Numbered from the stretch's first letter, positions 24,518 through 35,451 are shown. The stretch: DNA of 47,384 nucleotides from Candidatus Heimdallarchaeota archaeon (GCA_020353515.1 CP070695.1:1-47384); one strand, 5' to 3'. Program-made: numbers and translations. Notes: generated from the letters alone by a model not told the origin.

Positions 24518-25825
24518 TTACCAGGGGCCATTTTTTGGGAATTGTGGATCCCAGTCACTTGGTATACTGCCAGTAGCATACATTGTCAGGTTGAGATTTT
24601 CGAAACACTTATTTTTTACAGTTTGAATATCTTCTACAGAGACTTTTGAGATGTTTTCTAAGAAATCTGCCACGGAGAGAGGGTGACGGAATTTAATGTA
24701 TTTTTGTAAAAGGTCAATACCATAATTAGTAGGATCTTCGATTTCGGAAGTATATGAGCCTAAGGTTTCCTCTTTCAAATCGTTAACAGTTTGAGGAGTA
24801 ATTTCAAGATCATGAACATGAACTAGTAGATCCATGACTTTGTGAAAGACATTTTTTGTTTCTTTTGGCGGACTTATGAAAAAGATACCACTTATTGAGA
24901 TATCGAAAAGCGCTTCGAATCCAAAACGACACACGCTTGCTATTCCTTTACTAGTTATTTCCCGGTATAATAATGAAGTTCGAGAATTCCCTATAAATGT
25001 GTTTAGTAACAATAATGGATAGAAATCTGATGAATTGATGCCTGGGGTAGCCCAAGATAAAGCAACATAAGTGAGAGGTTTATCGAGTTTCTTACTCGAA
25101 TAAGAGATACTATTCTTACTACTCTTCTCTGGAGTAACTCTTGGAGGAAAAATAGGATGAGGTCGTGGTTCGGAGATTGCCTCGTTAAAAATTGAAGTTA
25201 GATATTGCTTTTCTCCTTCCAAATCAAAACCACCAACTAGAGTTACAACCGCATTATCAAGAGAATAATACTGTGTGATATAATCAGTCATCATATTTAG
25301 GGTAATTGCTCCCACCGATTCAGGAGTTCCGAGAATATTATGTTCTAATGCAGTTCCTGAGAATTGTTTTTGCCGAACCGTATAATTTGTATCAAATTCT
25401 GGCATATCTGCATATAATTGGATCTCCTGTAGTATAACTTGTTTCTCAGCTTTAAATTCTTCTGGATTAAGGACGTCATTGACCAATAGATCTTTCCAAA
25501 TCTCAGCTGCATGACGTAAATTGCGTGTTGGAACCTTTGCATAGTAAACTGTGTGATCATAGCTAGTAAATGCATTTAAATCTGCACCTAGACGCGTAAA
25601 TGCCTCGTTCACTTGTTTGGCTGTTTTTGTAGGTGTTCCTTTGAAAAACATGTGTTCTAAGAAGTGACTGATACCATCATTTGACCCAGATCCAAACCCT
25701 TTTTCATACATACTTCCAGCATGGAAACCCACCGCAAATAAAGCTGTTTTCCCTCCTGGAATGGAAACTAGTTGTAATTTCAGATTGTTGTCCAATGTTA
25801 CTAATTCAGATTGCTCATTATTCAT
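24518..25825 (-). CDS. M16B zinc metallopeptidase, catalytic subunit
   Basis: GISHFLEHMFFKGT (HxxEH), LNAFTSYDHTVY, EKQVILQEI. Confidence 0.93.
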   Translation of the reverse strand: MNNEQSELVTLDNNLKLQLVSIPGGKTALFAVGFHAGSMYEKGFGSGSNDGISHFLEHMFFKGTPTKTAKQVNEAFTRLGADLNAFTSYDHTVYYAKVPTRNLRHAAEIWKDLLVNDVLNPEEFKAEKQVILQEIQLYADMPEFDTNYTVRQKQFSGTALEHNILGTPESVGAITLNMMTDYITQYYSLDNAVVTLVGGFDLEGEKQYLTSIFNEAISEPRPHPIFPPRVTPEKSSKNSISYSSKKLDKPLTYVALSWATPGINSSDFYPLLLLNTFIGNSRTSLLYREITSKGIASVCRFGFEALFDISISGIFFISPPKETKNVFHKVMDLLVHVHDLEITPQTVNDLKEETLGSYTSEIEDPTNYGIDLLQKYIKFRHPLSVADFLENISKVSVEDIQTVKNKCFENLNLTMYATGSIPSDWDPQFPKNGPW

Positions 25826-25834
25826 TAGAATACC

Positions 25835-27088
25835 TCAGGACACATTGTAAGTCTTACTTGTCCAGTTTTCCTCAATCTTACTAGAATCAATATTTCCAGA
25901 AATAGCTAAGCTGAAATTTTCTGGTCGTAGGAGAGTTGTCTTCCACCAAGAGTGGAGCTCTTTACGAGTTACCCCCTGTATTTCCTCATACCCTGATTCG
26001 ATCTGAGGTGAAAGTCCATGAACTTTTCGGTTAATAATTTTGGATGCAGTCTGTCGGGAATCGTCAAAAGCTAGGTCTAATTGACCTAACATGAAATCAC
26101 GTGTTGTATCATATTCTTCAAGTGAAATTTCTTCTTTACCCATATCAGTAAGTATCTCAACTAATGAATCAATTGCCTCCTCCGTTCGCTTTGGAGAGGT
26201 TTCCATAAAGTAACGTTGAATCAACATATTATCGAAGAGTTTTAGCGTCGCTCCAGCAATGTAGCCAAACGCTTTTTGGTCACGCAGGATTGCAAACATT
26301 CTTGACCCAAAGGATTCCCCTAAAAGTGCACTTGAAAACCGTGCTAATCCGATTAAACTTGGTTGCAACTCGATAGTAATGTTAATACACAGGTAAACAC
26401 TTCCATCCTCCTTCATTGGCCTAGAGATTAGATGATTTGGAGGAGTAACTCTTTGTGGAAAAGATTGAGATTTTTGAACTTTAGTCTCTAGGGTGTTGGA
26501 GAATTCTGAAAATTTTTGATTGATTTTTTTTTGGAGAGAGTCTGATATCGCTCCAACGGTAAACCCCCAGGGCTGGACTAATAATTCTTGATGAGTTTTT
26601 TGGAGATCATCTTTTGTGAGTTGGTTTAAGGAATCTGGTGTTCCAATTTGAGGGCGACCAAGTGGATGGGTCTCTCCAAAAGCAGCTTTATCCGCATCAA
26701 ATAACAACATTCTTCGTACTGGATTGGATTGAACCTGGTGAAAGATTTGTATTAAATTCTGTTTTTCTATAAGGATGTGGTTCTCATCGAGAGTGGGAAG
26801 TGAAATCATTTCACAAAGGAGATCTAGAGTTCGTACAGCGAATTTTGGTTGAATTTGAGCACCGATGATAGAGAAATCTTTTTCTGTTGCCGAAAATAAC
26901 GTTCCACCAGTTCCATCAATCATTCTGGCGATTTCATTTTCATTATGTTGTTTAGTCCCTCGTGCCATTGTTTGTAATAGAACTTGTGTGGATCCAGCAA
27001 GAGTGTCATGAGAAGCTCCATGATGAGTTACTATTCCAAGACATATGGTACGCAAATTAGGATACGGACGAAACACTGTTGAGAACAT
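25835..27088 (-). CDS. M16B peptidase, non-catalytic partner subunit
   Basis: HxxEH is replaced by QVLLQ (GSTQVLLQTMARGT). HPLGRPQIG and SRMFAILRDQKAFGY (R/Y substrate pair) are retained. SD AGGAG upstream. Confidence 0.85.
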   Translation of the reverse strand: MFSTVFRPYPNLRTICLGIVTHHGASHDTLAGSTQVLLQTMARGTKQHNENEIARMIDGTGGTLFSATEKDFSIIGAQIQPKFAVRTLDLLCEMISLPTLDENHILIEKQNLIQIFHQVQSNPVRRMLLFDADKAAFGETHPLGRPQIGTPDSLNQLTKDDLQKTHQELLVQPWGFTVGAISDSLQKKINQKFSEFSNTLETKVQKSQSFPQRVTPPNHLISRPMKEDGSVYLCINITIELQPSLIGLARFSSALLGESFGSRMFAILRDQKAFGYIAGATLKLFDNMLIQRYFMETSPKRTEEAIDSLVEILTDMGKEEISLEEYDTTRDFMLGQLDLAFDDSRQTASKIINRKVHGLSPQIESGYEEIQGVTRKELHSWWKTTLLRPENFSLAISGNIDSSKIEENWTSKTYNVS

Positions 27089-27150
27089 TAATTAATCTCC
27101 TTGATGTCTTACTACGGTGAGTTGAATTATATTTATTTAGATAATTGCTA

Positions 27151-28665
27151 TTAAGCAAGCTGGAGGGTCGAAGCCCGATCAGGAGCAACTTTAGCTCGTC
27201 CTTTTTTCCACCACCAAAGAAAGGCAATTCCCAGCGCGATGGTGAAAAGAAGAACCTGGGCACCCATTACTACCCATAACATGTTGAAAGTTTCAAGTTG
27301 AGGATTGATGGAAGATAATTGACTCGCGAGAGTTACTTGGAGGTTAACACCAAATAATAGGTCAAGAGCTGGCATAGCTCCTCCACCAACCGTCCCTACC
27401 AAAGCTGCTGTCTTACTAACACGATGACTGGTTACAGACAGTTCAGGAAGACTTAGTTTTAATAGAACTGTTCCAGTCTCATTTTTGACGGAAATAGATC
27501 CAGTGAGAGGAGTGAATCGAAATCCTGCGTCAACTAACGGTGTAACAAAGAATGTCAATACTTTGGGTAAGTTTTGTGGTCGGGGATCAATAAATTGAGA
27601 GGAGGGTTGGATTAAACAACCACTTAGTAATGGTTCAACAACCAATCGCTTAGTAACATCTGTTAATTCAAATTCTCCCCGCGTTTCTTTTTCTTCTTCC
27701 CCTGAGAGGAAATGTGATTTATCTTTGGCAATTTCTCTTACAATCCTAGATAGAGTTACAACAAGTGGGTAAGTTTTACGAGAGAGCATTTTCGAATAAT
27801 AATGGACATGAGTGTGCATGGTATCTGCGGATGGAGGTTCCAAAGGGGTACCAGCCATTTTCTCGAATTTGACTTCTTCCCTTGCTGCCTTTTTTAATTT
27901 TTCTGAAACTCCACCTCGCATCGCGAGAGCGTCATCTGCTTTAGCGGCAACGGGTGCAGGAGTTGGTGCTGGTCTGGGGGGAGGTGCACCAGCTGCAGTG
28001 GAAGGAGGTGGTGCAGCTTTGGGAGCAGGAGGGGAAATTCTAGGAGAACCAGGAGGTGAAGGTGGAGCAGCAGGAGGGCCTGCGGGTGCTGCAGTAGGTT
28101 CAGGGGGAGGAGCAGCTGGTGTGGGAGTTGGTCTAGTAGGAGTAAATTTCTTAGTAGGGGCAGCTGATCGCATTCTTTCTGACGAAATCTCTTCTAAAGC
28201 TCCTTCTAAAATATTGTCAAGTGCTGCTTCTTCAAGGGCCTCTTCTTCTTTCTCATACATTAATTCTGGTTCGGTTTCTTCTGCCTCCGGAAATTGAAGC
28301 TCTTCCAGCTTCCTCGAAAAAGTAGCTGCACTTTTAGAATAGATTTTATTGGTTGATAAGGCCAATCCAGTTAGGAGAGGCTGAAAAGTTTCATCATGAG
28401 CTAGAGCTTCCCATACTCCCTCTGCATAGAGTAACGTTTGGAGAACAACGTACTTACCTGCATCAGTAGCTTCCATTAATAAAGTGAAAATTGTTAACAG
28501 AAATTGATCTGAAGCCTCTGGAAAAAAAGTTTCCAAAGTAGAAGCAAGGTAATTATGAAATTCCTTGTTATCAACATAACTTGAGTCGAGTCGAAGAGTT
28601 GAAAGAAGTTCAGGGACAAAATCTAACCAATTTGATGCAGATTTTAGAGAGAATGGAAAATACAT
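27151..28665 (-). CDS. C-terminally membrane-anchored protein with acidic and Pro/Ala-rich linkers and a beta-rich domain
   Basis: Helical N-domain, Glu-rich stretch, ~70-aa P/A-rich tract, beta-rich region, and C-terminal hydrophobic helices ending WWWKKGR. No N-terminal signal peptide. Confidence 0.8.
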   Translation of the reverse strand: MYFPFSLKSASNWLDFVPELLSTLRLDSSYVDNKEFHNYLASTLETFFPEASDQFLLTIFTLLMEATDAGKYVVLQTLLYAEGVWEALAHDETFQPLLTGLALSTNKIYSKSAATFSRKLEELQFPEAEETEPELMYEKEEEALEEAALDNILEGALEEISSERMRSAAPTKKFTPTRPTPTPAAPPPEPTAAPAGPPAAPPSPPGSPRISPPAPKAAPPPSTAAGAPPPRPAPTPAPVAAKADDALAMRGGVSEKLKKAAREEVKFEKMAGTPLEPPSADTMHTHVHYYSKMLSRKTYPLVVTLSRIVREIAKDKSHFLSGEEEKETRGEFELTDVTKRLVVEPLLSGCLIQPSSQFIDPRPQNLPKVLTFFVTPLVDAGFRFTPLTGSISVKNETGTVLLKLSLPELSVTSHRVSKTAALVGTVGGGAMPALDLLFGVNLQVTLASQLSSINPQLETFNMLWVVMGAQVLLFTIALGIAFLWWWKKGRAKVAPDRASTLQLA

Positions 28666-28843: not shown

Positions 28844-29230
28844 TTAACTCTTCTGTACATTCTTTTCCTTTCTTAGTTTAATAATTTCATCTTGAATTTC
28901 TTTGATTAATTGATTATAAGGACAGAGGAGGCATAAATCGATATTCCTTATTTCCTCAGCGTCATTAAGGTTGAAAAGGGTTCCCTGGTCAATTATTTTA
29001 GCTAAACCTTGCGGAATAAAGACAATTCCTTCTTGAATCAATCTAAAAATCTCCCTGAGAATATTTTCCTTCTGTTTAAGTGTTCGGATCTCAAGGAGGT
29101 TGAGTAAATATCCTAAGTTTTGTGTTTCAGTATCTTTAAATGACAAAAGAATGAGGGCACGATCAGTTAATTGAGCTCTATCGTCATCATTGATTCCTAT
29201 TTCTGTTAATAAGTTCTTCTTTGGTTTCAT
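28844..29230 (-). CDS. Small winged-helix-like protein, paralogue of 29730..30197
   Basis: QLTDRALILLSFKDTETQNL..ILREIFRLIQEGIVFIPQGL..IDQG.LF..IDLCLL.PY aligns nearly residue for residue with the paralogue. Confidence 0.8.
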   Translation of the reverse strand: MKPKKNLLTEIGINDDDRAQLTDRALILLSFKDTETQNLGYLLNLLEIRTLKQKENILREIFRLIQEGIVFIPQGLAKIIDQGTLFNLNDAEEIRNIDLCLLCPYNQLIKEIQDEIIKLRKEKNVQKS

Positions 29231-29267
29231 TGACCATCGAACCTTTAATAATATGAAACAAACTCCG

Positions 29268-29705
29268 TTAAATACTTTGATTTAGCCTTGGTAAGTATAA
29301 CTGTAGCAGTCTTTTAAGTAATGAATTCTCATCGAGACCTAAAGCTGGAATCACATTGGGTTTGATTCGAGATAGGATATCAGTAATCGAAGAGTCCTCT
29401 GGGAAATTTAGCCTCTTTTTTATGGTTGTGATTTCCCAATATATTTCGTTAAGCTGAGTAAAATTTTCAATGTGAAAATTAAAGGCTTTCCGAATCTCTT
29501 CGAGACTATCGAAAAGGTTGACGAGATCTTCAATAGGGGTGTGAGGGGGCAAATTTAATGCGGATTGCATATGCTTGATGCAATGCCATGTCGCAATTAA
29601 GGCATGCTCAGAGGAACCATTTGCTAGTTTCAAATATTTTTTTAGTTCTTTAAGCTCCTGTTGTCTCTTCTCTTCCTCTGATGAAGAATCTTCATAGCTC
29701 ATCAT
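29268..29705 (-). CDS. Hypothetical helical protein with a weak internal repeat
   Basis: 'ALNLPPHTPIEDLVNLF' versus 'RLNFPEDSSITDILSRI'. It is embedded in the operon. Confidence 0.7.
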   Translation of the reverse strand: MMSYEDSSSEEEKRQQELKELKKYLKLANGSSEHALIATWHCIKHMQSALNLPPHTPIEDLVNLFDSLEEIRKAFNFHIENFTQLNEIYWEITTIKKRLNFPEDSSITDILSRIKPNVIPALGLDENSLLKRLLQLYLPRLNQSI

Positions 29706-29729
29706 TATAATGCGTCCTAATATAGATCT

Positions 29730-30197
29730 TCATATTTCCTGACTTTTATTCGTCTTATTAGTCTGTAATTGTACTATATCATTCTGAATTTCTTTGATCA
29801 AGTCTTCATATGGACGTAGGAGGCATATATCAATATCTTCAGCCTCAATAGAGTTGTTATTGGTGTCAAACAGGGAACCTTGATCGATTAGCAGAGGAAG
29901 CCCTCTAGGAACATAGATTATCCCCTCCCGAATCAGTCGATAGATCTCTTGTAAAATATTCCTTTTCTCTACCAATGTACGAATTCCAAGGACATTCAAA
30001 ACATACCTCAAATTCTGAGTTGAAGTATCCTTAAAGGATAGTAATAAAAGAGCACGATCTGCTAATTGGTTTGCTAGACGATCCTCATTTATTCTTTCAT
30101 CCTTTGCTTTTTCGGAGAGAAAATTTGTGTCCAATACAAGATCATGATTTTTTTCTTTTGACTCTTGCTTTCGAACATAAACAATTTCTGAGAACAT
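29730..30197 (-). CDS. Small winged-helix-like protein, paralogue of 28844..29230
   Basis: QLADRALLLLSFKDTSTQNL..ILQEIYRLIREGIIYVPRGL..IDQGSLF..IDICLLRPY. SD GGAGG overlaps the end of the upstream gene. Confidence 0.8.
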   Translation of the reverse strand: MFSEIVYVRKQESKEKNHDLVLDTNFLSEKAKDERINEDRLANQLADRALLLLSFKDTSTQNLRYVLNVLGIRTLVEKRNILQEIYRLIREGIIYVPRGLPLLIDQGSLFDTNNNSIEAEDIDICLLRPYEDLIKEIQNDIVQLQTNKTNKSQEI

Positions 30198-30198
30198 G

Positions 30199-30477
30199 TT
30201 AAAAACCTCCAGTAAGGGTATAACGAGAACTATCTGTTGGATCTTGGATTATCTGTAATTTCTCATGGGAAAAATATTCGATCAAGTCGAGAAAATACGT
30301 GAGGAGTTTTCTAAGCTCTGAATCTGTGAACTTGTTTCCTTCTTTCATTTGAAGAGAACACAGCTTATTTTGAAGCTCAATTGAAGAAAAGAGATTCGTT
30401 GACATGAATAGTAATTGGAAAATTTGATCTAACGACTTTTTGATTCCAAATTGTTCCGTAACTTGCACTTTGTCCAA
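30199..30477 (-). CDS. Small hypothetical protein, possibly winged helix; first gene of the operon
   Basis: 92 aa, with its stop 1 nt from the next start. The pattern is helix-helix-helix then 'LQIIQD..SRYTL' hairpin. The TTG start is uncertain. Confidence 0.6.
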   Translation of the reverse strand: MDKVQVTEQFGIKKSLDQIFQLLFMSTNLFSSIELQNKLCSLQMKEGNKFTDSELRKLLTYFLDLIEYFSHEKLQIIQDPTDSSRYTLTGGF

Positions 30478-30482
30478 CGTCC

Positions 30483-30583
30483 GTGTGTTTTTTGATAACT
30501 ACACTTCTGAGTCAGAAATGAAAAACACACTTTGATATAACAAAAAGATATTCGAAAGTGACACAACTTGGAAAAATGTGTCA
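30483..30583 (-). promoter_or_regulatory. Operon promoter region: TATA-like TTATAT (30535-30540), upstream palindrome TGACACA-N11-TGTGTCA (30559-30583), palindrome TTCTGA-G-TCAGAA (30505-30517) and 10-bp IR GTGTGTTTTT/AAAAACACAC (30483-30492/30521-30530)
   Basis: The repeats were read directly from the sequence. The promoter assignment is inferred from archaeal TATA spacing. Confidence 0.5.
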
Positions 30584-30997
30584 GTAATACATTATGATAA
30601 TCTAGTAGAAACTAATAAAAAAACAACAAAGAGAAATTAATAAACTCACTCCTTAAATAGGGGTATAAATGGTTGAGATATTCGAATTATATAAAGCTAA
30701 AATTTTGAGCTAATTATAGATTCGGGGGATAGAGAGGGCCATCAAAAAGCTCTGTATTATCCTGGGAAGATTGGGAAAATACAGATTAATCAAACGATTG
30801 CATAATGGATTCTCATAGATTGATTCTAGGGTTATTTTAGAATATTTCCTTCTCGTTGGAGGCATCTTTGCTAATATATTAATTTGATTAGAGACTGATC
30901 TAACCTCTTGCTATAGAAAAGGTTCTAGCTGCAGGTTTTTGCAGTTGAACAATAAGAACCTTTCTTACGCCTGCATTTGATTCAATTCTTTTGAATT

Positions 30998-31150
30998 CTA
31001 GTCTATTAATGCGCCGTTTGGTCCACCTAAAGCTGCAGTTCCTAGTGAGGTTGCTGCTAGGTAGAGTAATATCAGGAATAACCATGGAATAAATTTCAAC
31101 AGCATTAATTCAACGTCTATTCTTTTTTCACGATTTCTAACTTTTCTCAT
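30998..31150 (-). CDS. Unannotated 50-aa signal-peptide-like small protein MRKVRNREKRIDVELMLLKFIPWLFLILLYLAATSLGTAALGGPNGALID
   Basis: ATG at 31150, TAG at 30998-31000, SD-like AGGTGTGT at 31159-31166. Basic N-region, ~20-aa hydrophobic core, small-residue c-region and short polar tail. Alternative ATG at 31105. Confidence 0.72.
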   Translation of the reverse strand: MRKVRNREKRIDVELMLLKFIPWLFLILLYLAATSLGTAALGGPNGALID

Positions 31151-31207
31151 TGTTTTTTACACACCTAATCTTTTTATTCGGTTTCTTTTATCCAGATTTT
31201 AACAATT

Positions 31208-31264
31208 TGAGTATTTATTTTCTTGAATACTCATTCGAATATTTTGTCTAGACAGGTTTATAAA
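31208..31264. promoter_or_regulatory. Divergent promoter region: IR TGAGTATT-N10-AATACTCA (31208-31233), palindrome TGTCTAGACA (31245-31254), TATA box TTTATAAA (31257-31264)
   Basis: Read directly. The TATA box ends about 27 nt before the regulator ATG, consistent with a leaderless transcript. Confidence 0.55.
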
Positions 31265-31291
31265 TAATACTATCCTTCTTTTCGGCATCAA

Positions 31292-32731
31292 ATGCCTCTC
31301 CCACAACAAAATTCCTTAATACTGGACAATTTCCGACAAAAACCCGAAGAGTATGAAATAGAGGAATTTGTACTTGATTTTCTCAATATTTGGATGTACA
31401 TCCATGAAAAAGCAGAGGATTGTTCACTAGAAGATACTTTGGAGTTAACTAAGCAATTATTAAATTCTCACATCATACCTTTCTTTACTAAATTCGAGGG
31501 TAATGAAAGTCTTGAGTTAAATGAGAGCTGGCTTAAGACTTATTCATCTATCGTTCTAAAATGGAAGAAAAGGGCAAGTTACTTATTTCCATTGAAACTA
31601 GTTACATATGAGATTTGTTATCATGATAAAAACCTTTTCGAGTTTTTTCTACAAAAATTACTTACAAAAGAGATTAAAGGAGAAAAAGAATCCTTATTCG
31701 AGTTTATTTTCCCTGTTTTAACGAATTTCACTGTCCCTCTTGATGATATGTATATTTCATTTCTAAAAGCTTTTCAGAGCTTAGAAAGGCATAATTCTAC
31801 ATATTATAAGGATCCGACTCAAAATGATTTCGCAAAGCTTTTGGAAGTATCCCCAAGAACTGTTTTACGACGAATGAATGTAATCCGCCTATTACAAATG
31901 GTCAGTGCTTCTCATTTTCTAGATATGGGTCAGCTTGGATATGAAACGACCTTATATGTGCATTCAAATCCTTTCCCAGAAAAATTCGAGAGATATTTAC
32001 TCCTCTCAACGGATTTGACAGTGGGAAATTTTAGTATTGTTCAGATCCCCTTCAAAAAGGCAAAAAAACTGTTATCTTTAGAAACTGACTTGGAATTATT
32101 AACTTCTCAATCAATGACAACAAGAATTTCTTCTTGGAATCTAACTGGTTTATCACCTGGAGAAGTCACTTGGAGGAGTCCTCCCTCATTTCTCCATGGT
32201 GAAGCTAATATTCCTCTAATTTCTCCCAGTCCTGATGTTCATTTCTCTCTTAAACCATCTTTTGATCTTTTTCGACCACTTACTCCTGCTGATATTAAAA
32301 TCCTTGATTTTCTTACCATTAAGGGAAGTTTCACAAGTATTAAACAATTGGGTGATTCAATTCAAGTTTCAGCTCCTGAAGTTTCAAAAAGGCTCCAGGA
32401 ATATGGAAATGATAATTTATTAGTAAAAGCGAATCACTACTACAACATCGGTTTAGATTTAACAATTTTCCTCTTTATCTCTGATGAAGATCGTTCTATT
32501 TCATGGGTTCAACATTTTCTTAGTTTCCCGAAATGTGATATTTATTATCAAAGCGACGAATCTCCACACTATTATTTTGGTTTTCTCAAACTGCCTAATT
32601 ATTGGATTAAAGCTTTTGCACGTAAGATTGATTTGATTAAAAAGGATTATGGTGTTAAAATATACTATAAAATTGCGAGTTCTGTTGACTATGCAAAATG
32701 GGGCATAGAGCTTAGTGAAACTTACTTTTAA
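31292..32731 (+). CDS. Transcriptional regulator: helical N-domain plus two tandem (wHTH + Lrp/AsnC-like) modules
   Basis: HTH1 'PTQNDFAKLLEVSPRTVLRRMN..LDMGQLGY' and HTH2 'LTPADIKILDFL..SIKQLGDSIQVSAPEVSKRLQEY..YNIGL', each followed by an alpha/beta segment. Confidence 0.78.
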   Translation: MPLPQQNSLILDNFRQKPEEYEIEEFVLDFLNIWMYIHEKAEDCSLEDTLELTKQLLNSHIIPFFTKFEGNESLELNESWLKTYSSIVLKWKKRASYLFPLKLVTYEICYHDKNLFEFFLQKLLTKEIKGEKESLFEFIFPVLTNFTVPLDDMYISFLKAFQSLERHNSTYYKDPTQNDFAKLLEVSPRTVLRRMNVIRLLQMVSASHFLDMGQLGYETTLYVHSNPFPEKFERYLLLSTDLTVGNFSIVQIPFKKAKKLLSLETDLELLTSQSMTTRISSWNLTGLSPGEVTWRSPPSFLHGEANIPLISPSPDVHFSLKPSFDLFRPLTPADIKILDFLTIKGSFTSIKQLGDSIQVSAPEVSKRLQEYGNDNLLVKANHYYNIGLDLTIFLFISDEDRSISWVQHFLSFPKCDIYYQSDESPHYYFGFLKLPNYWIKAFARKIDLIKKDYGVKIYYKIASSVDYAKWGIELSETYF

Positions 32732-33333: not shown

Positions 33334-34152
33334 TTGAAGGAAGAATATATGCAATCGAACCTACAACAACTCGAGCAAGAAATGAAATCTATTTTAAAAA
33401 AGGTTAAACGAAAGATCGTGGTTCTCTCTGGAAAAGGAGGCGTAGGAAAGTCTACAGTCGCAGCTAATTTAGCGTTAGCTTTTGCAGAGAGATTTCCAGA
33501 ACAAGTGGGTATCGCTGATTTAGATTTTTCTGGACCAAACATTCCAAAGATCCTTGGTGTGGAGGGTAAAAGGATGGAAGCACCCAAGGATGACAAATTT
33601 GACCCCATAAACGGGCCACAAGGCCTCAAAATAGTCTCAATGGCATTCTTTTTAGACTCCCCCTCTACACCTGTTATTTGGCGTGGCCCTTTGAAGATCA
33701 AAGCTTTACGCCAATTTCTTACTGATTTCACCTGGGGAGACCTAGAGATATTAATCTTCGATATGCCTCCAGGAACAGGGGACGAGGCAATCTCTGTGAT
33801 GCAAATGATCCCTGATATGGATGGAGTTGTGATTGTTACAACTCCTCAAGAGGTCAGTCTTCTTGACACTGGAAAATCGTTGATCATGTCTCGAAAGATG
33901 GATCGTCCCGTTATTGGTGTGGTAGAAAATATGTCAGCCTTTATTTGTCCTAAATGCGGGTCGAAACATACCATCTTTGGTGAGGGAGGTGGTATTCAAA
34001 TGGCTAAAGAATTTGGGACAGAATTACTGGGCCAAATTCCTCTCGATCCACAAATTAGAGCTGAGGAAGATCATGGGATTTCTCAAGCTTTTGAGTATTT
34101 CAAGCCTCTTGCAGAGAAAATTCTGGAGAAAATCGATAAAGTCAAGAAATAG
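33334..34152 (+). CDS. Mrp/ApbC/NBP35 family Fe-S cluster carrier ATPase
   Basis: SGKGGVGKS, DLDFSGPNIP, VIWRGP, DMPPGTGD, VTTPQ, ENMS..CPKC..IFGEGG. The likely start is ATG 33349. Confidence 0.95.
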   Translation: MKEEYMQSNLQQLEQEMKSILKKVKRKIVVLSGKGGVGKSTVAANLALAFAERFPEQVGIADLDFSGPNIPKILGVEGKRMEAPKDDKFDPINGPQGLKIVSMAFFLDSPSTPVIWRGPLKIKALRQFLTDFTWGDLEILIFDMPPGTGDEAISVMQMIPDMDGVVIVTTPQEVSLLDTGKSLIMSRKMDRPVIGVVENMSAFICPKCGSKHTIFGEGGGIQMAKEFGTELLGQIPLDPQIRAEEDHGISQAFEYFKPLAEKILEKIDKVKK

Positions 34153-34179: not shown

Positions 34180-35451
34180 TCAAAATTCTTTTTCTAAGGT
34201 CTCTAGCAAGTCTAAAGCCATAAAGACACCCAATTCTCCTTTGAGATCATCTTCACTCGTCCATTGACGGGCGAGATTCCGAATCTCTTCAATAATATTC
34301 CGTGTTTGCATCCTTTTTTGACCAATATCCATCAGTACTGACTGTCCTATTTCTAACACTCTTTGAATGTCTTTATTAAAATTAACGATCAACGTTCGTC
34401 TATCAGCTTTCCCTTCTGCCGTTTCAGAATAATTTAACATAATTTCGGATGTATTGAGACTATTAGATTCATCAATACAACTGACGTCGCGAATTATGCC
34501 CTTTAATCCCCTTATTACCATTACTGGATCCTTTCCCACTTCTTTTGAGATGTGTTGATCTGCTTTTTCTCTTCCCAGTAAATCGGTAACTAGCTGTTGA
34601 AGCATTCCTAGATTATCAAAACCTGTACCTATTAATTCTCCTGTTGAGATCCCTGCTTTCTCCTCTAAGTTTTGAATTCTGTTGAGAAAACCAGTTGTAC
34701 TAATAATCACTTCTTCTAATTTACTCGAAAAGTTAGATATTTTGGTATTTGTCCCCTCGAAGTTAGTTTCGACATTAGTAACACGTGTATTTAAACCATC
34801 AAACTTTGACTCAATTTCATCGATAGTCTTTCTAAAGGAATCATCCATTACTTGATTTAACTTTTCTTCTGTTGTTGTTTTATATTCAATGAACCCTTCT
34901 TCCAATTTTTGGAGAGATTCATTATTTTTTTCTAAATTACTCTTTAAAGCGTCTAAGGAAGGGGATATATTTCGATAATTGGTTTGGATTTCGGTTAATT
35001 TCGATTCTTGAGATTCTTTCAATTCTTGGAATGTATTATTCACCCTCACAATCTCTTCTTCTAAAGCTGTCAGCTTTGATAAATCTTGATCAACTGTGCT
35101 TAGCTTAGATTGTACACTCGTAATTGCTTCATTAATTGGATTGAGTAAGCTTTCCTGTTTTGTAGTTTGATCATTAAGAGATTGCTGTAATCCTGACATG
35201 TTTTGCTTAATCTCATGGATTTCCTGAGAAAGGGGATTTAATTCCTGAATCGTGGTCTTTAATTCCTCCAAAATTTTTTCTGTTTCATAAAATTTGGAGC
35301 TATACTCCTCAAAAGCCTGAATAGTTGAATCTAAATTGCTTAATTTTTGGTTAACATAAAGAACTTCACTTTTCAAGGTTCTAATACTATTGAAAACAAT
35401 TTCTAGAGAAGCTTTGACTTCAGTTAATTTTTCTCCTGCTTCTTCACTCAA
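34180..35451 (-). CDS. Long coiled-coil protein with a C-terminal helical/globular domain
   Basis: About 265 aa of near-continuous heptad pattern rich in E/K/Q/S/L/N. No ATPase motif or TM segment. SD GGAGGT upstream. Confidence 0.8.
   Translation of the reverse strand: MSEEAGEKLTEVKASLEIVFNSIRTLKSEVLYVNQKLSNLDSTIQAFEEYSSKFYETEKILEELKTTIQELNPLSQEIHEIKQNMSGLQQSLNDQTTKQESLLNPINEAITSVQSKLSTVDQDLSKLTALEEEIVRVNNTFQELKESQESKLTEIQTNYRNISPSLDALKSNLEKNNESLQKLEEGFIEYKTTTEEKLNQVMDDSFRKTIDEIESKFDGLNTRVTNVETNFEGTNTKISNFSSKLEEVIISTTGFLNRIQNLEEKAGISTGELIGTGFDNLGMLQQLVTDLLGREKADQHISKEVGKDPVMVIRGLKGIIRDVSCIDESNSLNTSEIMLNYSETAEGKADRRTLIVNFNKDIQRVLEIGQSVLMDIGQKRMQTRNIIEEIRNLARQWTSEDDLKGELGVFMALDLLETLEKEF

Follow-up and report, generated by a model that had tools for sequence, protein, structure and literature searches.

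A candidate peptide-signalling module in an Asgard archaeon, combining a signal-peptide-like mini-protein with a fused double-Lrp regulator

Among described systems, those closest to the locus reported here are the RRNPP systems of Bacillota and their phages (Rgg/SHP, PlcR/PapR, PrgX/PrgQ, AimR/AimP), in which the gene for a 40-60-aa precursor adjoins, often divergently, that of a cytoplasmic receptor-transcription factor. Most of this precursor serves as export signal, and its active part is C-terminal; several paralogous pairs with different peptides, and orphan receptors too, can be present in one genome, and the layout is autoregulatory. Two further points of comparison are structural. Lrp/AsnC (feast/famine) regulators combine a helix-turn-helix (HTH) with a RAM-type alpha/beta fold, bind small ligands at domain interfaces and are commonly autoregulated from operators that overlap their promoters, while NirDL/AhbAB, a sirohaem decarboxylase of haem d1 and alternative haem synthesis, is a single-chain or heterodimeric double Lrp/AsnC protein that holds its ligand between the modules. 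For archaea, we are aware of no peptide-based communication system that has been described, and searches of full-text literature returned no archaeal peptide-signalling system of the kind considered here. The present locus lies in a stretch of 47,384 nucleotides (nt; the window) that forms the first part of the single 4.94-Mb contig of a Candidatus Heimdallarchaeota archaeon. By the public names of close homologues, it belongs to the Hodarchaeales (Heimdallarchaeia, Asgard archaea), which are among the closest known archaeal relatives of eukaryotes, whereas the RRNPP hosts are bacteria and phages. It consists of a gene for a 50-aa mini-protein, a divergent gene for a 479-aa regulator, and a small downstream gene, c2 (Table 1), and it shares with RRNPP the layout, the multiplicity of pairs and the make-up of the precursor, the last of these being predicted here from sequence. 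That the regulator has the mini-protein's tail as its ligand, so that the two work as a peptide-ligand/receptor switch, is in our judgement an evenly balanced proposition; that Hodarchaeales use secreted gene-encoded oligopeptides as cell-to-cell signals read by double-Lrp receptors is a tentative one, possible rather than probable.

A sequence-only reading of this DNA had proposed a 50-aa open reading frame (ORF) on the minus strand, head-to-head with the 479-aa regulator across a 141-nt spacer, with palindromes between the genes; coordinates, orientation and spacing all agreed with what we found, and the palindromes are present. Over six orthologues, the ratio of non-synonymous to synonymous substitution rates (dN/dS, Nei-Gojobori) of the small ORF is 0.07-0.34, and tblastn and hidden Markov model (HMM) searches recovered homologues, labelled 'hypothetical protein' in several public annotations, at the same divergent position beside regulators, locus after locus. 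A chance ORF is ruled out by dN/dS and conservation, and by these comparisons the small ORF is a real gene under purifying selection. The public runs listed for this stretch are sediment DNA metagenomes, with no RNA run among them. When an HMM was run over the 29,308 small ORFs of the genome, the best match other than the query (E = 1.7e-4) fell at 1724222-1724374, divergent from a paralogous regulator that is 23% identical to the window regulator, and a third paralogue of the regulator, at 1941069, is likewise accompanied by a divergent small ORF of this layout.

Small divergent ORFs beside regulator homologues had been set beforehand as a check on the proposal. Across 22 genomes, about 46 of the 56 non-redundant near-full-length regulators have such an ORF of 45-69 aa, 74-233 nt upstream (a computed count, corrected by hand), including both distant paralogues (22-26% identical) of the window genome, and the pair also occurs in a sister genus; the pairing is systematic and divergent across the family. 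Up to five peptide/regulator pairs with distinct tails are found in one genome (G020). The regulator family itself is present in all 21 of the 21 other genomes of the genus, with 1-11 copies each (counted at E <= 0.001) that are at times arrayed in tandem. When 400 genomes of the phylum were searched with a profile, strong full-length matches were confined to the home genus, with weak ones in two sister genera and otherwise partial Lrp-like ones, and among 1.84 billion representative proteins the regulator profile matched 151 at E <= 0.001. Tandem arrays of three to five regulator paralogues are seen at G020:C234 (L048), G001:C14 (L049) and G005:C14 (L050); some of their regulators are 'orphan', having no adjoining peptide gene, and one carries an in-frame TAG.

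The anatomy of the mini-protein, derived from 46 small-ORF peptides, follows the plan of a class I signal peptide of the Sec type, that is, a basic n-region, a hydrophobic h-region of 7-15 residues and small residues at positions -3 and -1. In the window copy, residues 1-19 form a basic n-region (net charge +4) with a conserved R-x-R, residues 20-32 a hydrophobic core opened by a [LIMF][LIV]P motif and residues 33-42 a small/polar c-region, after which the tail ends in G-P-x4-[ILV]-D. Across the 46 peptides, the n-region is 20 residues long at the median and carries +3 to +8 net charges (+4 as the summary value), with R-x-R almost invariant and followed by K/R and then by [LIMF][LIV]P; the core measures about 13 residues, and the small residues of the c-region are conserved in a -3/-1 pattern, as V-x-A or A-x-G ahead of G-P in the main clade and as G-[IV]-A ahead of D-P in the paralogue clades. 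The tails are 8-14 residues long and rich in Gly and Pro. Their type tracks the regulator clade: main-clade tails end in G-P-x4-[ILV]-D, with the G-P and the terminal hydrophobic-Asp invariant within the clade, those of one paralogue clade end in D-P-T-T-T-P-P-x-P and those of another in A-P-P-I-x-P-P-G-G-G, and tails always differ among the pairs of one genome. Thus, the basic/hydrophobic/short-tail layout ascribed to the small ORF by the sequence-only reading is borne out by selection, homologues and n/h/c anatomy alike, and the gene would encode a Sec-type-like signal peptide plus a short tail, with predicted export and cleavage. At about 20 aa, the n-region is atypically long for a Sec signal peptide, and it is also much longer and more conserved than in RRNPP precursors. 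A class III (pilin-type) signal peptide was rejected, there being no G/A at -1 before the hydrophobic stretch, and so was a Tat signal, since the motif is R-x-R and not a twin arginine, and F-L-K is absent.

The uncharged stretch of these peptides often reaches 20-30 residues, enough to span a membrane, and this bears on a different explanation, in which the mini-protein would be an uncleaved single-pass membrane micro-protein (N-in, C-out) with a function of its own and the regulator would only control its transcription together with that of c2. In variants of this explanation it would be tail-anchored, or would act in a membrane complex as subunit or modulator, with any docking of the tail being a modelling artefact; we consider the explanation, variants included, unlikely. 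Divergent regulator-target pairs are common, and strong constraint on the n-region and hydrophobic core combined with fast evolution of the tail is what such a protein could show. Against this, small-x-small followed by D-P or G-P is conserved where the hydrophobic stretch ends, the tails of the clade keep their invariant G-P and terminal hydrophobic-Asp, and the paralogous pairs of one genome carry different tails.

The sequence-only reading had described the regulator as a helical N-domain of about 170 aa followed by two winged-helix, Lrp-like modules, an architecture that both AlphaFold2 (AF2) and Foldseek confirmed. Computed from a 20-sequence alignment, the AF2 model has a predicted local distance difference test score (pLDDT) of 89.5 and a predicted template-modelling score (pTM) of 0.82. 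A helical N-domain with a beta-hairpin takes up residues ~1-170, and residues ~175-300 and ~330-479 make up two fused Lrp/AsnC-like modules, each comprising an HTH and an alpha/beta RAM-like domain, the strand-helix pattern of which DSSP finds twice (residues 204-282 and 377-461). NirDL, in which two Lrp/AsnC folds are fused, heads the Foldseek matches (E = 1.8e-8), and dozens of Lrp/AsnC regulators come next at probability 1.0; the alignments, of about 150 columns, span whole Lrp chains, and the template-modelling score by target is 0.6-0.68 per module. In Pfam, HTH_AsnC (PF13404) matches residues 334-369 with 22.3 bits, below its cut-off of 27, HTH_11 matches residues 176-199 weakly and HTH_24 is sub-threshold. 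The single-module subunit of about 150 aa, assembled into dimers or octamers, that is usual for Lrp/AsnC is not what is found here, as the 479-aa chain fuses two modules behind the N-domain; by its model, the regulator is a fused, N-terminally extended structural variant of the Lrp/AsnC superfamily. The regulator differs further from that superfamily in its predicted ligand, a gene-encoded peptide in place of a free amino acid, and in its predicted pocket, which includes the N-domain. From NirDL, with which it shares 11-12% sequence identity, the regulator differs in having the N-domain, in the absence of haem-pathway genes near the locus, and in the conserved operator-like boxes and Lrp-like recognition-helix motifs (S-x-R-T-V-x-R-R) that its family keeps. 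These HTH motifs and boxes together suggest that the regulator binds DNA. It has neither a signal peptide nor a transmembrane (TM) segment. In ESM Atlas, archaeal clusters from Thor-, Heimdall- and Bathyarchaeota have this overall shape as well, and because they share it, the fused double-Lrp architecture with an N-domain appears to be wider than the regulator family.

No TPR protein is among the Foldseek matches of the regulator, which are of NirDL, Lrp, AsnC and FL11 types only, and Pfam gives only HTH families. Since it has no TPR domain, the regulator is not an RRNPP receptor, and the expectation that the two would prove non-homologous was upheld by AF2, Foldseek and Pfam together: in place of a TPR domain there is a fused double Lrp/AsnC fold with a novel N-domain. 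By analogy, then, we regard the module as RRNPP-like in its working and not as a member of RRNPP.

To model the pair, the regulator alignment and an alignment of the full 50-aa peptide were co-folded in one controlled run. The score was 0.74, compared with 0.00 for the best of three controls (all 0.00), the runs share at least 77% of contacts, and the pLDDT of the partner is at least 59. Co-folding the peptide with the regulator had been suggested as a check by the sequence-only reading, and although the full 50-mer was used, the tail alone was docked: the confident interface is limited to peptide residues 37-50, with residues 43-50, the predicted mature 8-mer of Table 1, as the core of the docking segment. 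The predicted pocket is made by the hairpin and helices of the N-domain (contacts at regulator residues 77-98, 140-145, 161 and 174-180) together with both the first Lrp module (191-207) and the second (343-352, 382-391, 431 and 462-470). The earlier proposal that Lrp-like ligand domains bind the tail is therefore matched by the modelled docking, but only in part, as the pocket also needs the N-domain and both modules. Since no confident contact with the regulator involves the n-region or the hydrophobic core, residues 1-36 being contact-free, the model presents the tail as a ligand and not the cytoplasmic N-terminus as a tether. We consider it credible, on this model, that the tail of the mini-protein binds the regulator pocket. 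A membrane micro-protein with a function of its own is hard to reconcile with a co-fold of 0.74 in which three controls gave 0.00 and the contacts are confined to the tail.

The co-fold would also support binding if the switch is wholly intracellular, the regulator binding the tail of an unexported or membrane-inserted precursor, with no extracellular signal or re-import. The small protein would then serve as an anti-regulator, a membrane tether or a secretion-state sensor, and a long conserved cytoplasmic n-region, which would suit a cytoplasmic interaction or controlled insertion, as well as a regulator with no signal peptide or TM segment, would be in keeping with such roles. Nevertheless, the strongly basic N-terminus predicts that the tail is outside the cell, the signal-peptidase-like site is conserved and the n-region stays free of contacts in the model, and we rate these partner-switch roles, taken jointly, as quite improbable.

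Turning back to the tail as a ligand of the regulator, several results weigh against this reading. The calibration of the co-fold, in which 58 of 80 solved complexes and 2 of 110 mismatched pairs attained this mark, holds only roughly, because an uncleaved 50-mer and our own paired alignments were used. In a Mantel-type test, tail distance and interface distance correlate with r = 0.538, compared with 0.498 +- 0.05 for random sets, which places the interface within the top 20% and is not significant; the same result counts in favour of the membrane micro-protein explanation. In the six orthologues, residues 1-19 have a ratio of non-synonymous to synonymous differences per site (pN/pS) of 0.11, residues 20-38 one of 0.14 and the tail one of 0.66, so that the n- and h-regions are strongly constrained and the tail evolves fast, but the last value could equally mean relaxed constraint and not diversification. 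The n-region exceeds, in both length and conservation, what a generic signal peptide would require, a hint of a second function in the cytoplasm. No peptide gene could be recognised beside about 10 regulators, most of them members of same-strand tandem arrays, and upstream of four full-length but more remote relatives of the regulator (P0091, P0099, P0107 and P0112) no clear small ORF of this layout was found. The best structural match of the regulator, NirDL, is an enzyme, and the case for DNA binding draws on HTH motifs and boxes. Export, cleavage, re-import and the signalling role are all candidate steps. On the other side, the ratio of between-clade to within-clade divergence is 1.70 at the interface and 1.51 +- 0.08 for random position sets, 1.2% of which reach it (p ~0.01). 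This modest signal is as expected of specificity-determining sites and, since the clades are few and related, no more than suggestive. Of the covariation that the sequence-only reading had suggested looking for between tail and regulator, then, the clade-divergence ratio gives a sign and the Mantel-type test does not, and covariation beyond shared descent is weak. Accordingly, the proposal of a peptide quorum-sensing or state switch has gained a real gene, a regular pairing and a modelled docking of the tail, but little from covariation beyond descent.

The spacer between the two genes is 88% identical in seven orthologues. Its invariant blocks lie around AGGTGTG, ribosome-binding-like and belonging to the peptide gene, the TTCGAATAT box, the CTAG palindrome and the TATA of the regulator. 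The palindrome, TGTCTAGACA at 31245-31254, is perfect and lies directly upstream of the TATA-like TTTATAAAT; with the TTCGAATAT box it makes up an element that is invariant or near-invariant in the 7 orthologues and abuts the TATA-like box, and most main-clade loci also have a [CT]TCTAGA core ahead of the TATA. Three copies of TTCGAATAT fall within 700 nt (30548, 30678 and 31234), as against 101 in 4.94 Mb, and the copy at 30548-30556 (minus strand) belongs to the c2 promoter and is conserved in orthologues. Because the conserved TTCGAATAT is common to both promoters, the downstream operon would be linked to the same regulator. The second palindromic element of the spacer, the inverted repeat, keeps its position in all seven orthologues (L005-L010 included) with a stem sequence that is different in each, and a hairpin is predicted at that position in 7 of 7 (z-scores -2.1 to -2.9); the repeat could be a co-diversifying DNA operator or an RNA hairpin in the leader of the peptide gene. 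Rfam gave no match within 30400-31350, and RNAalifold gave only weak structures on the intergenic regions. In the gap that separates c2 from the peptide gene, a non-coding block of about 45 nt (30731-30775) is conserved in six orthologous loci, where it contains no conserved ORF; it holds a GGCC-N7-GGCC hairpin with no Rfam match.

On the far side of that gap lie four tightly packed minus-strand ORFs, c2, c1a, c4 and c1b, which the sequence-only reading had taken as an operon following the peptide gene. The close packing holds, but a gap of 520 nt with its own promoter-like region precedes c2, and because this region is conserved, the four genes are probably a transcription unit apart from the small ORF. 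The gap and the conserved promoter-like region also rule out that the small ORF is a leader peptide or upstream ORF of the downstream operon. As a partner of the pair, the four-gene set stands only for c2, which is family-wide; the others are frequent or lineage-specific neighbours. In hhalign, c2 matches the ~100-aa ORFs that follow the peptide genes of paralogue loci with a probability of 94.6 and E = 6.6e-8. Of 18 paralogue loci, 17 have a c2-like gene starting 7-54 nt beyond the peptide gene, and of 23 main-clade loci, 9 have one within 300-715 nt. Since a c2-like gene recurrently follows the peptide gene, the comparison of loci indicates that the conserved unit is a triad of regulator, peptide and c2, in which c2 is new here as the third partner; RRNPP systems differ in this too, the conserved third gene for a c2-like protein of ~100 aa being a feature of the present locus. 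Pfam, a PDB profile search and ESM Atlas gave no matches for c2.

In the mechanism that we propose, the locus would be a regulatory cassette of three parts, confined to a single lineage of Hodarchaeales. The 50-aa gene would give a precursor made of a Sec-type signal peptide and a tail of 8-13 residues, and the regulator would be a single-chain pseudo-dimer of two Lrp/AsnC modules capped by the helical N-domain. It would bind the TTCGAATAT/CTAG-palindrome boxes in the promoter region common to its own gene and the peptide gene, and also the TTCGAATAT box of the c2 operon promoter, and its activity would be switched when the cognate tail sits in the pocket formed by the N-domain and both Lrp modules. 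The likeliest route of the tail would be export, cleavage, extracellular accumulation and re-uptake by an Opp/Dpp-type importer; the genome has 23 matches to SBP_bac_5 (Opp/Dpp-type binding protein), which is a necessary condition only and not specific evidence. The result would be an RRNPP-like autoinducing loop made from non-homologous parts, with the c2-like small protein as output and, in the clade of the window, MarR-like c1 proteins as well. If the tail is a secreted ligand, the module would be a convergent, non-homologous Asgard counterpart of Gram-positive RRNPP signalling and the first case of peptide quorum sensing in Archaea, with an origin independent of RRNPP, and it would mean that ligand domains of the Lrp type can be put to use in reading gene-encoded peptides. 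The hypothesis is cheaply testable, and the three pairs with different tails in one genome offer built-in specificity controls. Even on modest readings, the regulator, micro-protein and c2 would make a new conserved triad restricted to Hodarchaeales.

Table 1. Features of the locus and its surroundings, in window coordinates
Feature	Position	Strand	Remark
Small ORF, 50 aa	30998-31150	minus	read as pro-peptide gene
Predicted mature C-terminal 8-mer, residues 43-50	31001-31024	minus	assumes signal-peptidase-type cleavage
Regulator, 479 aa	31292-32731	plus	helical N-domain and two Lrp/AsnC-like modules
Inverted repeat	31208-31233	none	10-nt arms, 6-nt spacer; divergent promoter region
TTCGAATAT box, then palindrome TGTCTAGACA	31234-31254	none	candidate operator
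TATA-like TTTATAAAT	31257-31265		regulator's promoter
c2 operon promoter-like region	30545-30583		second TTCGAATAT box and TGACACA-N11-TGTGTCA inverted repeat
c2, 92 aa	30199-30477	minus	third conserved partner; fold not recognised
c1a, 155 aa	29730-30197	minus	weak MarR-like winged-helix similarity; paralogue of 128-aa c1b
c4, 145 aa	29268-29705	minus	no Pfam match
c1b, 128 aa	28844-29230	minus	c1a paralogue
Pro-rich protein, 504 aa, C-terminal TM helix	27151-28665	minus	orthologue-only synteny
M16B peptidase pair	25835-27088 and 24518-25825	minus	complementary pair; Pfam Peptidase_M16 and M16_C in both proteins
Syntenic extension	24518-28665	minus	restricted to orthologous loci

In six orthologous loci, the gene order is peptide, c2, c1, c4, c1, Pro-rich membrane protein and M16B peptidase pair, and the M16B pair is syntenic in these loci only, not family-wide. 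As M16 enzymes cut short peptides, a part for the pair in processing or turnover of the tail is conceivable, if speculative. The same pair also figures in an explanation of another kind, namely that the small gene encodes a secreted antimicrobial or RiPP-like (ribosomally synthesized and post-translationally modified) peptide, or a type-I-toxin-like membrane peptide, processed by M16B, with the regulator as its control or immunity switch. A small hydrophobic ORF, M16B synteny among orthologues, paralogue expansion and a fast-evolving tail would all be compatible with it. Nonetheless, we judge it highly improbable: the M16B pair accompanies six orthologous loci and no others, no modification enzymes or dedicated transporters are conserved beside the pair of peptide and regulator genes, and the locus is chromosomal, syntenic and under purifying selection. 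To our knowledge, Gly/Pro-rich products of 8-13 residues are, moreover, unlike known archaeocins.

The c1a and c1b proteins are 53% identical (alignment A2). The AF2 model of c1a has a pLDDT of 72, and its top Foldseek rows are all MarR/SarA, weak, with a best E of 0.07; the c1 proteins are probably small MarR-like winged-helix proteins, on weak evidence. For c1 and c4, nothing usable came from Pfam, the PDB profile search or ESM Atlas. A c2-c1 pair is found near regulators in 13 of 23 loci, including other clades, although neither c1 nor c2 is exclusive to regulator loci, and other c1 copies lie at 427554 and 3760607 of the window genome. The first of these, a third c1 copy (427554-427931, minus strand), is away from any regulator and has an in-frame TGA, being possibly a pseudogene. 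The c4 gene is restricted to orthologous loci and one other locus. Comparison of the neighbourhoods suggests that the small regulatory proteins into which the module feeds vary from clade to clade. Behind the c2-c1 pair of another regulator clade come a CheY-like receiver-domain protein (c7) and a small winged-helix-like protein (c8), an extension seen at L043 4890-5345, L044 5131-5586 and L049 9013-9489. On its other side, the regulator is flanked by an Mrp/NUBPL-type ATPase (33334-34152), beyond which a 423-aa coiled-coil protein (34180-35451, minus strand) is matched weakly by many coiled-coil families.

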